A stretch of DNA of 60,011 bases from Eubacteriales bacterium (lineage in GTDB: Bacteria; Bacillota; Clostridia; Oscillospirales; SIG627). Shown in pieces: positions 30,521-38,998 of the stretch (positions are counted from its first letter, which is position 1; every line of letters begins with the position of its first letter). Under the pieces are notes generated by a model. It did not search any database. It was not told the DNA's origin and was given only the letters and a program-made list of their open reading frames with translations. Where the stretch lies: assembly GCA_045655865.1 (NCBI GenBank), contig JAZOQB010000007.1:1-60011 (forward strand). The letters are read 5' to 3'. The translations under genes and the position numbers were made by a program.

Positions 30521-31399
30521 TTATTCAATGTTTTGGATCTGCTCCCGGATCCTCTCGATTTCATTTTTTGCGTCGATCACAAGACGTGTGATCTCGATCA
30601 TGGAGCATTTTGAGCCAATGGTATTGACTTCCCGGTTTAGTTCTTGGGTGAGAAAGTCCATGGTCCTGCCGGAAGGGGTGTCTTGCCGGATCAGGTCACG
30701 GAATTGCTGAATGTGGCTGGAGAGACGTGTGATCTCTTCCCCGGTATCGATTTTATCAGCAATGATACCAACTTCGGTGAGAAGACGGTTTTCATCGATG
30801 GCCTTGTCCTGTAGGTACTCCTGAAGTCTTCCTTCCAGCTTTTGGCGATAAAGGGAGAGGGCTTGGGACGAATAGGTCCGGATTCCCTCCAGAATTTCTT
30901 CCATGCGGTCAAGCCGGGAATCCAAATCCCGGAAAAGATTTTCTCCTTCTCTTTCCCGCATGGCAAGAAAGGCATCCAGCGCCTGTTCTACCACCACCTC
31001 TACCGCGCGCCAAACCGTGTCGGCGTCTTCCTCTTTTACTTTTTTAGAAAAAATGTCGGAGAAACGGGAAACGGTGGAAACAGAAATATCCTCTCTCAAC
31101 CCGTGATTTTTCGCGATCTTCCGGAGTGCTTCCACATACTGCGCCGCCAGGGCGTCGTCCAAGGCGATCTCGGATAGATCCCCCGCGGGTCGATCCACGG
31201 AAAGATAAGCGTCTACCTTTCCTCGGGAGGCTTTTTTTTGGATCGCCTTTTTGATTTTTTCCTCCAAATAGCCGTAAAGGCGAGGCAGGCGAATGTTGGT
31301 GTCAAGATAACGGTTGTTTACAGAACGGATCTCAAAGGTAATGTCGTACCCTTCAATTTGCTGGGAACAACGGCCGTAACCGGTCATGCTTTTTAACAT
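30521..31399 (-). CDS. yicC: YicC/YloC family endoribonuclease
   Basis: SMTGYG, RSVNNRY, EEITRL, QELNREVNTIGSK, IREQIQNIE. Confidence 0.95.
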   Translation of the reverse strand: MLKSMTGYGRCSQQIEGYDITFEIRSVNNRYLDTNIRLPRLYGYLEEKIKKAIQKKASRGKVDAYLSVDRPAGDLSEIALDDALAAQYVEALRKIAKNHGLREDISVSTVSRFSDIFSKKVKEEDADTVWRAVEVVVEQALDAFLAMREREGENLFRDLDSRLDRMEEILEGIRTYSSQALSLYRQKLEGRLQEYLQDKAIDENRLLTEVGIIADKIDTGEEITRLSSHIQQFRDLIRQDTPSGRTMDFLTQELNREVNTIGSKCSMIEITRLVIDAKNEIERIREQIQNIE

Positions 31400-31601: not shown

Positions 31602-32273
31602 ATGGATATTTCTAAGATTCTCTCTTGCACCGATCACACGCTTTTGTCTCCCACCGCCACATGGTTTGATATTCGCCACCTTTGCGATGAAGCCGTTACC
31701 TACAAAACCGCTTCGGTCTGCATTCCGCCTTCTTTTGTAAAAGCGGCGAAAAATTATTTGGGAGAGCAGATGCGCGTGTGTACCGTGATTGGTTTCCCCA
31801 ACGGCTACCATTCCCTTCGGGTCAAGGAATACGAGACCCAAAGCGCCCTGGCGGACGGAGCAGATGAAGTGGATATGGTCCTATCCCTGGGAGCGGTCAA
31901 GGAAGGGGATTTTCGATCCGTGGAAGATGAGATTTCTTTGATACGGCGTGCTGCACAGACAAAGACGCTGAAAGTGATCGTGGAGACGTGTCTTTTGACA
32001 CGGGAAGAGAAGATCCGGCTTTGCCGTGTGGTGGGAGAAGCCGGCGCGGATTATATCAAAACCTCCACCGGATTTTCCAAAAAAGGTGCTACGCCGGAGG
32101 ACGTTGCTCTTTTTGCTGAGAATATTAAGCCTCCGCTTCGCATTAAGGCGGCCGGCGGTATTTCTACCCTGGAGGATGCATGGCGCTTCCTTTCTTTGGG
32201 CGCGGACCGATTGGGAAGCAGCCGCGTGGTGAAACTTGTCCAAGAAATGCAGAATCAGGAGGAAAACGGATGA
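31602..32273 (+). CDS. deoC: Deoxyribose-phosphate aldolase
   Basis: DHTLL, TVIGFPNG, GADEVDMV, KVIVET, IKTSTG, KAAGGI. Confidence 0.97.
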   Translation: MDISKILSCTDHTLLSPTATWFDIRHLCDEAVTYKTASVCIPPSFVKAAKNYLGEQMRVCTVIGFPNGYHSLRVKEYETQSALADGADEVDMVLSLGAVKEGDFRSVEDEISLIRRAAQTKTLKVIVETCLLTREEKIRLCRVVGEAGADYIKTSTGFSKKGATPEDVALFAENIKPPLRIKAAGGISTLEDAWRFLSLGADRLGSSRVVKLVQEMQNQEENG

Positions 32274-33007
32274 ACGCTCCAACCCCACACATTCAAGCTG
32301 CTCCTGCAGATTTTGCCAAAACCGTTTTGATGCCGGGAGATCCTCTTCGAGCCCAATGGGTCGCTCAGACTTATTTGGAAAACCCGATCCTTGTGAACAA
32401 TGTCCGAGGCGTTCAGGGATACACCGGCCTTTTTGAAGGCCAGCGGGTCTCTGTGATGGCCAGCGGCATGGGGATGCCCTCCATGGCCATTTACGCCAAC
32501 GAGCTGTTTTCGGCTTTCGGCGTGGAAAACATTGTGCGCGTCGGTTCTGCCGGTGCGATGCAAAAAGAGGTTCGCATGCGGGATCTTGTGATCGCCCAGA
32601 GCGCCAGCACCGATTCTGGAATGGCAAAGGATTTTTCTCTTCCGGGCACCTTCGCTCCCACCGCCACCTTCTCTCTTCTGCGCATCGCCGTCGAGGAGGC
32701 GGAAAAAATGGGCCTTTCTTTCCACGTGGGAAATCTTCTTTCCTCGGATCATTTTTACCACGACGAAACGGATCTTCGCCCGGAGGAAACCTCGCTGGCT
32801 CGGTGGTCGAAAATGGGAGTTTTAGCGGTAGAAATGGAAGCGGCCGCGCTGTATATGACCGCAGCCCGTCTTGGAAAACGCGCTCTTGCCATTTGCACCG
32901 TCTCGGATCATCTTATTACCGGGGAAAAGACTACCAGCGCGGAACGGGAGACCTCTTTTACCGATATGATCAGCCTTTCACTGCGTTGTGCCTTGCGTTT
33001 TTCCTAA
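32270..33007 (+). CDS. deoD: Purine nucleoside phosphorylase (DeoD type)
   Basis: TPHI, MPGDPLRA, GMGMPS, RVGSAG, VEMEAA, TVSDH. Start trimmed to ATG 32270. Confidence 0.97.
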   Translation: MNAPTPHIQAAPADFAKTVLMPGDPLRAQWVAQTYLENPILVNNVRGVQGYTGLFEGQRVSVMASGMGMPSMAIYANELFSAFGVENIVRVGSAGAMQKEVRMRDLVIAQSASTDSGMAKDFSLPGTFAPTATFSLLRIAVEEAEKMGLSFHVGNLLSSDHFYHDETDLRPEETSLARWSKMGVLAVEMEAAALYMTAARLGKRALAICTVSDHLITGEKTTSAERETSFTDMISLSLRCALRFS

Positions 33008-33011
33008 AAGG

Positions 33012-33047
33012 AAAAAGGAAGACCGAAGCTTCGGTCTTCCTTTTTTT
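33012..33047 (+). terminator. Intrinsic terminator after deoD
   Basis: AAAAAGGAAGACCGAAG/CTTCGGTCTTCCTTTTT palindrome with T-tail. Confidence 0.9.
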
Positions 33048-33152
33048 GGACACAAAATGAATGCCCAACAAAACTATTATATAATAAAGATCATGATAAT
33101 TCAAGTGTTAAAATAACAGAAAAATAACAAAAATATTTGTGTAGGATGCGAA

Positions 33153-33181
33153 TTTACAAAACGGGCAAGTCATGGTAAGAT
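33153..33181 (+). promoter_or_regulatory. sigma-A-like promoter with no downstream protein gene
   Basis: TTTACA-17-TAAGAT with extended TG, located after the deoD terminator. Confidence 0.6.
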
Positions 33182-33235
33182 AAAGGCGTAAGAAGGAAAG
33201 AAAAAACGGGGCAAAAAGGACCCCGAACCTGAACA

Positions 33236-33320
33236 AGGAGGTACGGTCCAAAGAAGAAGATCCAGTGACCCGGATGTCCGGAGAAAAAGAGAATCATACC
33301 AGGAGGTACGGTCCCATGAA
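33236..33320 (+). repeat. Direct repeat AGGAGGTACGGTCC(A/C)A(A/T)GAA, two copies
   Basis: Copies start at 33236 and 33301; 14-nt exact core, 18/20 over the extended unit, each followed shortly by CAGTGA. Confidence 0.9.
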
Positions 33321-33336
33321 CAGTGAGGAACAGAAG

Positions 33337-33384
33337 TAACCCCGAACCGGTAGAAAAACCAAAGCCGGTTCGGGGTTATTTTTT
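33337..33384 (+). terminator. Terminator hairpin with T-tract on the + strand; may also serve the convergent ECF operon
   Basis: Perfect 14-bp stem TAACCCCGAACCGG/CCGGTTCGGGGTTA followed by T6. Confidence 0.85.
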
Positions 33385-33847
33385 AGAAGTTGAACGTTTC
33401 GACGCAAAGAAGGTATTGGGCCCCGTCCTTTAAAACAAGATCGGCAATGCCCACACTGGCGTAGCAATAACTGTGCCCTTTGATCTCCACCGGATCTCCG
33501 AAGGTGAACGCGCTGTCATCGGTATAAATGGCGATGTACTGGTTCTCTCCGGGTGTAAGGTCACAAAGACCGTTGAGGAAAGGACTTTCGCCCTCGGCAA
33601 TATCTGCTTGGAACTGGTCACGGTAAGCTTCGGATTTTATGGCATCATACAGGGTGGCTCCCTCTTCCAAGGTAGACAGGTCCAGTACAATGACCTGATC
33701 CTGTTCTCCGGAGATTATGACAGTGGCAGTGGGCAGGTTTTGGGTCTCTTCCGGCCCTGTGGTTCCGGTGCTTTCCTGCCCTTGTGCGCAGGACAGGAGA
33801 GAGAAGAGAAGGGTGAGGATGAGAAGGGATGTAACGATTTTTTTCAT
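33383..33847 (-). CDS. Lipoprotein with divergent DUF4430-like (transcobalamin beta-domain-like) fold
   Basis: Lipobox LLSC; TLYDAI...ASVGIADLVLKDG pattern; last gene of the riboswitch operon; AAAGGAG RBS. Confidence 0.65.
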   Translation of the reverse strand: MKKIVTSLLILTLLFSLLSCAQGQESTGTTGPEETQNLPTATVIISGEQDQVIVLDLSTLEEGATLYDAIKSEAYRDQFQADIAEGESPFLNGLCDLTPGENQYIAIYTDDSAFTFGDPVEIKGHSYCYASVGIADLVLKDGAQYLLCVETFNF

Positions 33848-38779: not shown

Positions 38780-38859
38780 AACAAAATCGGCCCGGAAAGG
38801 ATAGACCTCTCCCTGGCGGTTTCGGCTGCGCTTCTTCTCGTCCAAGACGAACCAAATAT

Positions 38860-38980
38860 AAAATGCGGCAGTGTTCTGGCTGAAAGCTTGTGCTTTTTCA
38901 CAGTAATGACGGTTGCTCCGGATTTTCACCGGATTTCCATTTTGATCTACCGGAGATCTCTCTCCCTCGAACCGCATTTT
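38860..38980 (-). promoter_or_regulatory. Cobalamin riboswitch (short form)
   Basis: AATGGAAAT-CCGGTGAAAATCCGG-AGCAACCGTCATT-ACTGTGA...AGCCAGAACACTGCC (B12-box-like); closing stem AAAATGCGG/CCGCATTTT; upstream of a CbrT-like ECF operon. Confidence 0.9.
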
Positions 38981-38998
38981 GTAATTTAATTTTTCTTT

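Follow-up and report, generated by a model that had tools for sequence, protein, structure and literature searches.

Positions 33,153 to 33,384 of the stretch of Clostridial DNA analyzed here (60,011 nt of contig JAZOQB010000007.1, Eubacteriales bacterium; hereafter "the window") contain a small RNA unit on the + strand. The unit is independent: it has its own promoter and terminator, the upstream gene is terminated separately, and it is conserved despite differing upstream neighbors. Judged by comparison of sequences, it derives from an RNA class that is widespread in Clostridia and undescribed in the sources searched, and the derived form is specific to the genus. It is built from tandem modules, each of which presents a Shine-Dalgarno (SD) motif within a conserved 13-nt block, GGAGGTAYRGTCC. 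We tentatively favor the view, which we regard as quite possible though short of probable, that this RNA of ~200 nt acts in trans and engages ribosomes at its tandem initiation-site modules, either as a decoy or as an array of mini-open reading frames (mini-ORFs).

Anatomy and conservation of the small RNA unit

The unit consists of the following elements, all on the + strand:

33153-33181, +, promoter with the −35 box TTTACA, a 17-nt spacer and the TG-extended −10 box TAAGAT (9 of 12 consensus matches)
33186-33206, +, purine-rich 5′ leader GCGTAAGAAGGAAAGAAAAAA; relatives have GGTGCAAGGAAGAA... in the equivalent position
33207-33225, +, 5′ stem-loop CGGGG/CCCCG; relatives have a stem-loop of other sequence in the same position (by reading of the loci)
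33236-33249, +, block I of the interior module, AGGAGGTACGGTCC, an SD-like site with the conserved spacer; AAAG stands where the final module has CATG, so that there is no start codon
33265-33287, +, hairpin of the interior module: GTGAC, stem CCGG (33270-33273), loop ATGT, stem CCGG (33278-33281), AGAAA
33301-33314, +, block I of the final module, the second exact AGGAGGTACGGTCC
33316-33339, +, mini-ORF ATG AAC AGT GAG GAA CAG AAG TAA (MNSEEQK*), which starts 9 nt past GGAGG and has its stop codon in the base of the terminator stem
33336-33384, +, intrinsic terminator with a stem of ~15 bp (33336-33350 pairs with 33365-33379) and a T run to 33384

Transcription would start near 33186. The predicted folding energy of the whole 201-nt unit is −62 kcal/mol (z = −4.8), to which the terminator stem contributes most.

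An earlier note on this DNA, written from the sequence alone, had described a promoter TTTACA-17-TAAGAT with an upstream TG, a + strand terminator, a CGGGG...CCCCG hairpin and two exact copies of a 14-mer, and all four are present, with the promoter, the terminator and the 14-mers (starting at 33236 and 33301) where it placed them. It had also pointed to seven GGA motifs. Their positions are correct, but they are no enrichment, as that reader had suspected: the count of 7 compares with 7.7 ± 1.8 in shuffled sequences (P(≥7) = 0.76) and is thus at chance level. In contrast, an exact non-overlapping repeat of at least 14 nt was found in 3 of 3000 dinucleotide shuffles, so that the 14-mer repeat is beyond chance and is indeed, as the note had argued, the stronger signal. 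In the 1.45-Mb assembly, the 13-mer core of AGGAGGTACGGTCC has just two occurrences, and both are in the small RNA unit. The statement that the unit has no long ORF holds as well, since the longest + strand ORF wholly within it has 24 aa, and a 36-aa ORF with a GTG start (33323-33433) exits through the terminator; what had been overlooked is the conserved seven-codon ORF at 33316-33339.

When 40 related genomes were searched at the DNA level, all 19 that belong to the genus matched, as did 1 of 16 genomes of other families and none of 5 other genera of the family. The matches in all 19 genomes of the genus show that the unit is real, and they bear out the proposal of the note that an independent, conserved and repeat-built small RNA is encoded on the + strand. 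The 20 genomes of the genus, whose completeness as metagenome-assembled genomes (MAGs) ranges from 63% to 95% (94.7% for the window genome), all contain the unit with one to five interior modules. The window has the shortest form, with one interior and one final module. The order in the relatives is promoter block, GGTGCAAGGAAGAA leader, 5′ stem-loop, interior modules, final module, and terminator. Seventeen of 20 related loci (L001 to L020) have a GA[AG]TTTACA block together with a −10 box at equal spacing; of the three without a match, two (L012 and L018) end at a contig edge. The sequence of the 5′ stem-loop varies by species, and the long forms have an added structured stretch ahead of the final module. 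In L003 to L017 this extra segment of ~100-150 nt separates the final module from the last interior one (e.g. at about 1385-1490 of the oriented locus L008). It is closed by a helix of the type GATCTC...GAGATC, contains a small hairpin CCGC-NNN-GCGG, and is wholly missing in the window RNA.

The modules are mostly spaced 62-84 nt apart, with a few distances of up to 123 nt that contain inserted sequence, and the linkers are variable. The spacing is a multiple of three in 15 of 47 cases, and no Pfam matches were found for the long antisense ORFs of the relatives; therefore, the repeats are non-coding on both strands. An antisense protein was accordingly rejected as an explanation, the long − strand ORFs in the relatives being a by-product of the purine-rich + strand.

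Four related loci (L004, L013, L016, and L020) have an inverted repeat TGTGAA-N12-TTCACA over the −35 box and the spacer, which may be a repressor operator; it is weak or absent in the window.

Sequence and structure of the interior module

The interior module has the order GGAGGTAYRGTCC, M-AAR, ~10 variable bases, (AC)AGTGAC, a 4-bp stem with its loop, and GGAGNAA. In the first alignment, GGAGG was invariant in 49 of 49 interior modules. A covariance model of the interior module (R1) retrieved 57 modules at E ≤ 1e-6 in 21 loci. In the small stem, 91.3% of the cells are paired and 12 cells are changed on both sides, a result that none of 500 shuffles reached. The double changes convert G-C to A-U or C-G, and A-U to U-A or G-C, and controls with slid positions had 19-55% of the cells paired. 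The comparison thus supports by covariation that the 4-bp stem is real. Across the conserved GAC/AGNA internal loop, outer positions would allow U-A in 54 and G-Y in 43 of the 55 sequences, which is compatible with two outer pairs but does not prove them.

The triplet at the start-codon position was tabulated for the 78 interior and final blocks of the 20 loci of the genus: AAG occurs 28 times, AAA 22 times, ATG 21 times, GTG twice, and other triplets five times. In the interior modules, A23 and A24 of the AAR that replaces the start codon are invariant. The interior modules are therefore a conserved start-less form and not decaying copies of an initiation site.

No fixed partner for block I was found within the RNA, the highest mean pair probability being 0.08 (45 modules). 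A GGTC/GACC hairpin inside the module was rejected, because the variants GGACC, AGTCC, and ATTCC are uncompensated, and RNAalifold predicted no structure on the raw MAFFT alignment. For the final module, RNAalifold proposed a 3-bp GGA/TCC stem within block I; it is mostly invariant, and by reading its variants are not consistently compensated.

The final module and its mini-ORF

The final modules of 19 RNAs were compared. Of these RNAs, 17 are loci of the genus, L019 belongs to another family, and L059 is a metagenome locus. A start codon is located 9 nt after GGAGG in all 19 (ATG in 17, GTG in two; GVG-type). The ORF has seven sense codons in 16 RNAs, six in two, and 12 in one, and the sole length change is one of 3 nt. 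The stop codons (TAA in 11, TGA in seven, TAG in one) are each found at the terminator stem or within a few bases of it. The peptide is loosely conserved in the genus, as exemplified by MNSEEQK, MNTTDQI, MNSEGQF, and MNKPDQI. The invariant codons show no synonymous change at all (AAC is always used), so that the constraint points to the RNA level. By this comparison, what is kept in the final ORF is a short translatable frame together with its nucleotides, and not the amino-acid sequence.

The covariance model of the final module (R2) scored 93.3 bits on 33296-33385. In the window genome, AGGAGGT precedes 1.3% and GGAGG 13% of 1274 crude ORFs, and no gene of this genome was found to have the 13-mer block as its initiation site.

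A wider RNA class in Clostridia

The earlier note had suggested a search of Rfam and a covariance model of the repeat for Clostridial genomes. The repeat turned out to be kept across the genus and beyond, and R1 and R2 were built from it; no Rfam 15 family matches the unit. In the window, Rfam gave no match to the unit at the gathering threshold, and at E ≤ 10 the region had just sub-threshold matches of the terminator type. In 18 related loci (E ≤ 0.01-0.05), nothing matched except cobalamin riboswitches and a tRNA adjacent to the unit. R1 had no match in 150 other genomes of the order. R2 detected divergent true relatives in other genera and families, i.e. at four of the 13 loci inspected (L064, L066, L074, and L076), while the remaining nine loci are plain terminators at gene ends and not members of the class. 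Beside the divergent member L066 (genome G071), a tRNA gene is located at 338-411 on the − strand.

The class became apparent in pattern scans. A first scan with GGAGGTACGGTCCNRTG, using one genome per species, yielded at least 120 matches, and 80 loci were analyzed. In the low-GC loci, an ORF of at most 12 codons followed 33 of 39 matches, compared with 12 of 47 for the chance matches in high-GC DNA. In 37 loci from outside the genus, ATG, GTG, or TTG stands behind 68 of 73 blocks, a fraction that is biased because the seed contained RTG. The lengths of the 68 ORFs are unbiased by the seed: 37 have at most three codons and 62 at most ten. Most ORFs of the class have one to three codons, e.g. 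M*, MK*, MG*, MR*, MF*, MKT*, MGT*, MYK*, MYR*, MDR*, and MNR*, and locus L100 has a GTG-TAA start-stop unit.

A second scan used AGGAGGTAYRGTCCMATGRR; its counts refer to the matches listed, and because the pattern was seeded on the start codon, the fraction of blocks with a start is biased. Among the 80 titles listed, 72 are Firmicutes or Clostridia (by reading), four clearly belong to other phyla, and four are unlabelled. The 117 low-GC loci listed contain 200 blocks, 170 of them with a start codon (with the bias just stated). The 170 ORFs comprise 88 with at most three codons and 135 with at most 11 codons; 22 have at least 15 codons, and 13 run to the end of the locus. Carriers were found among Lachnospiraceae, Oscillospiraceae, Ruminococcaceae, Blautia, Dorea, Agathobacter, and Acetatifactor, and include the cultured Lactonifactor longoviformis DSM 17459 and Lachnospiraceae bacterium MC2017. 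Altogether, more than 100 species-level records of Clostridia (Lachnospiraceae, Oscillospiraceae) contain the 13-mer with a start codon.

The recurrent layout is a strong promoter, an A-rich leader, several mini-ORF blocks, a last block with an ORF of 6-10 codons, and a terminator. The final ORFs encode peptides such as MDISEI, MEITESK, MNTDESKK, MVLDFKSEQK, and MDNEQK. The barest member, L138 from a Lachnospiraceae MAG, consists of promoter, MG*, MG*, MG*, MGICSI*, and terminator, connected by A/U-rich linkers only. As this locus holds nothing except promoter, linkers, sites, and terminator, the function of such members must lie in the sites. The neighbors of class members in Lachnospiraceae are unrelated.

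Searches of a phage collection with the window RNA and with the L138 RNA gave no match. A metagenome scan returned 14 loci. Two of them belong to the class, the typical L059 and the variant L050; the others lie in coding, high-GC or AT-rich unrelated DNA. A description of the class was not found in the searchable literature; the 13-mer occurs in no searched text, and the literature matches to an 11-mer are unrelated primers.

The block was also found ahead of ordinary genes (an HPr-like gene of 78 aa in five loci, MgtE-like, PduL-like, and others). These were considered as a target regulon and rejected, the number being about that expected by chance on a rough estimate; such matches would reflect chance and inheritance among the many AGGAGG-N9-ATG sites. 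The HPr-like gene, encoding 76-78 residues in Dorea and other Lachnospiraceae (L225, L226, L300, L314, and L315), has the initiation site AGGAGGTATAGTCCA-ATG, which is either a product of chance and inheritance or a hint that the gene is a natural target of the factor that reads the site.

Two variants of the layout were observed. Lachnospiraceae bacterium 47-T17 (L154/L234) has two complete copies of the class in tandem, ~600 nt apart, each with promoter and terminator. In eight loci (L197, L201, L209, L218, L246, L275, L281, and L311), a single block is followed by an ORF of 15-19 residues with the shared tail QYE(S/G)GxA*, e.g. MGTDESNYQYESGKA; the ORF of this sub-group may be a real small protein.

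Ribosome engagement as the proposed mode of action

The combination of a full SD motif, a fixed spacer, a start codon almost everywhere, and a very early stop codon is the signature expected of selection for ribosome engagement without a protein product. Starting from the observed anatomy, its conservation, the covarying hairpin, and the start and stop pattern of the final ORF, we infer that the RNA binds ribosomes, acts in trans, and has a physiological effect by this route. Each module presents the full-strength SD AGGAGGT inside the 13-nt block. The final module would be a true initiation site: ribosomes would start at the ATG at 33316 and, after seven codons, terminate in the base of the terminator stem. 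In the interior module, the same docking block has no start codon, and the small hairpin begins ~15 nt past the would-be P-site codon, a distance that would place it about at the mRNA entry channel. Because a docking block without start codon is followed by a hairpin, the interior module could hold a 30S subunit without productive initiation. Each RNA molecule would thus tie up ribosomes or initiation components at several of its sites, and in other Clostridia, ribosomes would be cycled through the ORFs of one to three codons. The fallback proposal of the earlier note, a decoy for 30S subunits or another SD-binding factor, is favored by the comparative data.

Still more tentatively, the whole class could be a new type of regulatory RNA that targets the ribosome, in which arrays of an extended initiation site, start-less or with ORFs of zero to three codons, set the translational capacity of the cell. 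Such arrays might retain ribosomes, initiator tRNA, or particular peptidyl-tRNAs, or send them through futile cycles. The class would then be the ribosomal counterpart of 6S RNA, which targets RNA polymerase, and of CsrB, which targets CsrA.

Several results weigh against ribosome engagement. Thermodynamic folding predicts no greater openness for the blocks than for the remaining RNA, the mean unpaired probability of GGAGG being 0.36 versus 0.48 for the whole transcripts (63 modules). The 13-nt block is conserved far past the needs of SD pairing: neither SD pairing nor pairing within the module, whose variants are uncompensated, explains why the spacer TAYRGTCC is conserved. The conserved AAR, the covarying hairpin, and the second GGAG resemble a protein-binding site at least as much as a ribosome trap. 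In addition, a search by conserved motif found a 16S rRNA gene in none of the 20 genomes of the genus, including the assembly of the window, and the anti-SD sequence is therefore assumed, not read. Pairing of the spacer with the 16S tail beside the anti-SD was also considered; the common variants G to A and T to A would break it.

Competing explanations

The main alternative, which we consider rather unlikely but deserving of weight, is that the RNA is a sponge for an RNA-binding protein that recognizes GGAGGTAYRGTCC, and in the genus also the GAC/AGNA hairpin and the second GGAG, and titrates this protein from its targets. It would account for the conservation of the 13-nt block and the hairpin well past SD needs and for the invariance of A23 and A24 in the start-less interior modules of the genus. 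Sponge RNAs vary in their number of repeats, and the number of modules likewise ranges from one to five between species. However, no candidate protein was found. CsrA is missing from every one of the 20 genus genomes, and the window genome (94.7% complete) gave no match for Hfq. No gene of the window genome uses the block as an initiation site, so that no target set is visible, and the start codon at a fixed distance and the early stop codon across Clostridia are left unexplained.

A clearly less probable explanation places the function in the final mini-ORF, either in its translation or in the peptide. The RNA would then be a translation-coupled sensor, in which a ribosome that reaches the stop codon opens the terminator stem and thereby sets read-through or RNA stability, or a dual-function RNA that encodes a peptide of 6-10 residues. 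All 19 RNAs retain the start codon, the frame, and the stop codon, the last at the stem or a few bases from it, and distant final peptides are acidic or polar and often end with K (MNSEEQK, MDNEQK, MVLDFKSEQK, MNTDESKK, MEITESK). Yet the peptide is poorly conserved within the genus, and its invariant codons lack synonymous changes. No consistent downstream gene exists: in the window it is convergent, and in the relatives the next element apparently has its own promoter-like site. The start-less interior modules also have no place in this explanation.

A base-pairing sponge is very unlikely. Its G-rich blocks would capture C-rich RNAs of the RoxS/RsaE kind or pair with mRNAs. RosA and RoxS in Bacillus are a precedent, and the repeated GGAGG could pair with C-rich seeds. 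This variant, also raised in the earlier note, found no support: RsaE was not found in the 94.7% complete genome, and no complement of the 13-mer with at most one mismatch exists in the assembly. With two mismatches, the numbers are 15 + 10, compared with 15 + 14 for the reversed-pattern control. Fixed start and stop codons behind the block would, moreover, remain unexplained.

A CsrA-titrating sponge, the first suggestion of the earlier note on the grounds of the repeated GGA motifs and a 10/12 match to the CsrA consensus, has a negligible probability, because CsrA (PF02599) was detected in none of the 20 genomes of the genus, the window genome included, while the E. coli, B. subtilis, and Thermotoga controls were positive (CsrA would have to lie in the unassembled part of all 20 MAGs); furthermore, the GGA count is at chance, the CsrB-clan models (CL00106) gave no match on 33153-33384, and the lone CsrB alignment (19.6 bits, gathering score 71) is on 33000-33051, i.e. 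on the terminator of the upstream gene.

Comparison with known systems

Like CsrB, CsrC, and RsmX-Z, the unit encodes a stand-alone small RNA with its own promoter and terminator, variable purine-rich repeats with GGA, and a plausible titration logic. It differs in that CsrA was not found in this lineage and none of the models matches. The repeat of CsrB-type RNAs is A(N)GGA in hairpin loops, whereas here it is a full SD block of 13 nt; and unlike in CsrB-type RNAs, one module in the window RNA, and most modules elsewhere in Clostridia, are start sites with a mini-ORF.

STAB-SD-type 5′ stabilizers of Bacillus mRNAs contain an SD without a start codon and are thought to dock the 3′ end of 16S rRNA without initiating. 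The interior module resembles them, as AGGAGGT followed by AAG is a strong SD without a start codon at initiation distance. However, STAB-SD elements occur singly, in cis, at the 5′ ends of long mRNAs, whereas the sites here are in tandem, have a conserved spacer and a hairpin, and lack a cargo gene. No downstream mRNA that could be stabilized in cis is present in the window, where the terminator at 33336-33384 is followed by a convergent gene.

Minigenes, of which the phage lambda bar loci are examples, combine a strong SD with an ORF of two or three codons. The wider class is similar in that it contains MG*, MK*, MR*, MYK*, MNR*, and even start-stop units. The predicted ORFs of other families have one to three codons, and the window genus keeps only one of seven codons, which sets it apart from bar. 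The class also differs from bar in being chromosomal, conserved, and arrayed in a dedicated small RNA with one extended initiation site.

A short ORF with a stop codon that abuts an intrinsic terminator is reminiscent of leader-peptide attenuators. In contrast to these, neither an antiterminator helix nor a run of regulatory codons is present, no regulated + strand gene lies downstream in the window, and no downstream gene family is conserved elsewhere.

Type III antitoxin RNA arrays (ToxI, CptI) are tandem direct RNA repeats and are also known in Lachnospiraceae; they share with the unit tandem direct repeats that end in a terminator. Their units are exact and 34-45 nt long, whereas the modules here are spaced by 62-84 nt (up to 123 nt), have variable linkers, and contain one SD site per repeat. 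No type III toxin-antitoxin toxin gene (ToxN-, CptN-, or TenpN-like) follows the array; the genes there encode a lipoprotein without Pfam match and energy-coupling factor (ECF) proteins, and are on the opposite strand. Since the neighbors differ between lineages, the RNA is neither a leader nor a type III antitoxin array.

To our knowledge, almost no small RNAs of gut Clostridia have been characterized, and the usual hub proteins are often missing in these bacteria. The RNA design described here is conserved and easily recognized: a promoter, tandem GGAGGTAYRGTCC sites with ORFs of zero to three codons, a final ORF of 6-10 codons, and a terminator. If ribosomes are its target, the RNA would add a new layer to the global control of translation in abundant gut bacteria of humans and animals, and would be a natural example of minigenes in arrays. 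Should its partner be a protein, the RNA would define the recognition site of that protein. On either reading, annotators gain a motif and two covariance models (R1 and R2), and culturable carriers exist.

Genomic neighborhood

The features that surround the unit in the window are:

31602-32273, +, DeoC-family aldolase gene, the first of two upstream + strand genes
32180-33007, +, PNP_UDP_1 gene (purine nucleoside phosphorylase, deoD-like), the second upstream gene, as a mechanical ORF of 275 aa
near 33016-33052, +, own terminator of the PNP_UDP_1 gene, between that gene and the small RNA unit
33383-33847, −, lipoprotein gene without Pfam match, the first of the convergent downstream set

The terminator of the small RNA adjoins the stop codon of the convergent lipoprotein gene, which is followed in the − strand set by an ECF S component gene and then by a fused ECF ATPase gene. 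In most members of the genus, a cobalamin riboswitch and a lipoprotein/ECF-type operon, including an ECF-S-like gene, are located directly downstream of the small RNA on the same strand. By reading of the loci, this operon of the relatives apparently has its own promoter-like site. Unlike in most genus members, the ECF genes of the window are convergent to the small RNA, which indicates a rearrangement of the neighborhood. Upstream, the neighbors of the unit differ between the genomes of the genus.

In the window, a cobalamin riboswitch (RF00174, 43.5 bits) was detected at 38850-38991 on the − strand, and possibly stands at the head of the − strand ECF-type operon whose end is the shared terminator next to the small RNA. 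The 275-aa ORF of the phosphorylase overlaps the end of the DeoC-family gene, and its Pfam domain is covered from a start at 32270, which is probably the true start of the gene. A gene for a YicC-like endoribonuclease (30521-31399, −) lies ~2 kb upstream of the small RNA; it is not among the immediate neighbors inspected in the relatives and is probably unrelated to the small RNA.

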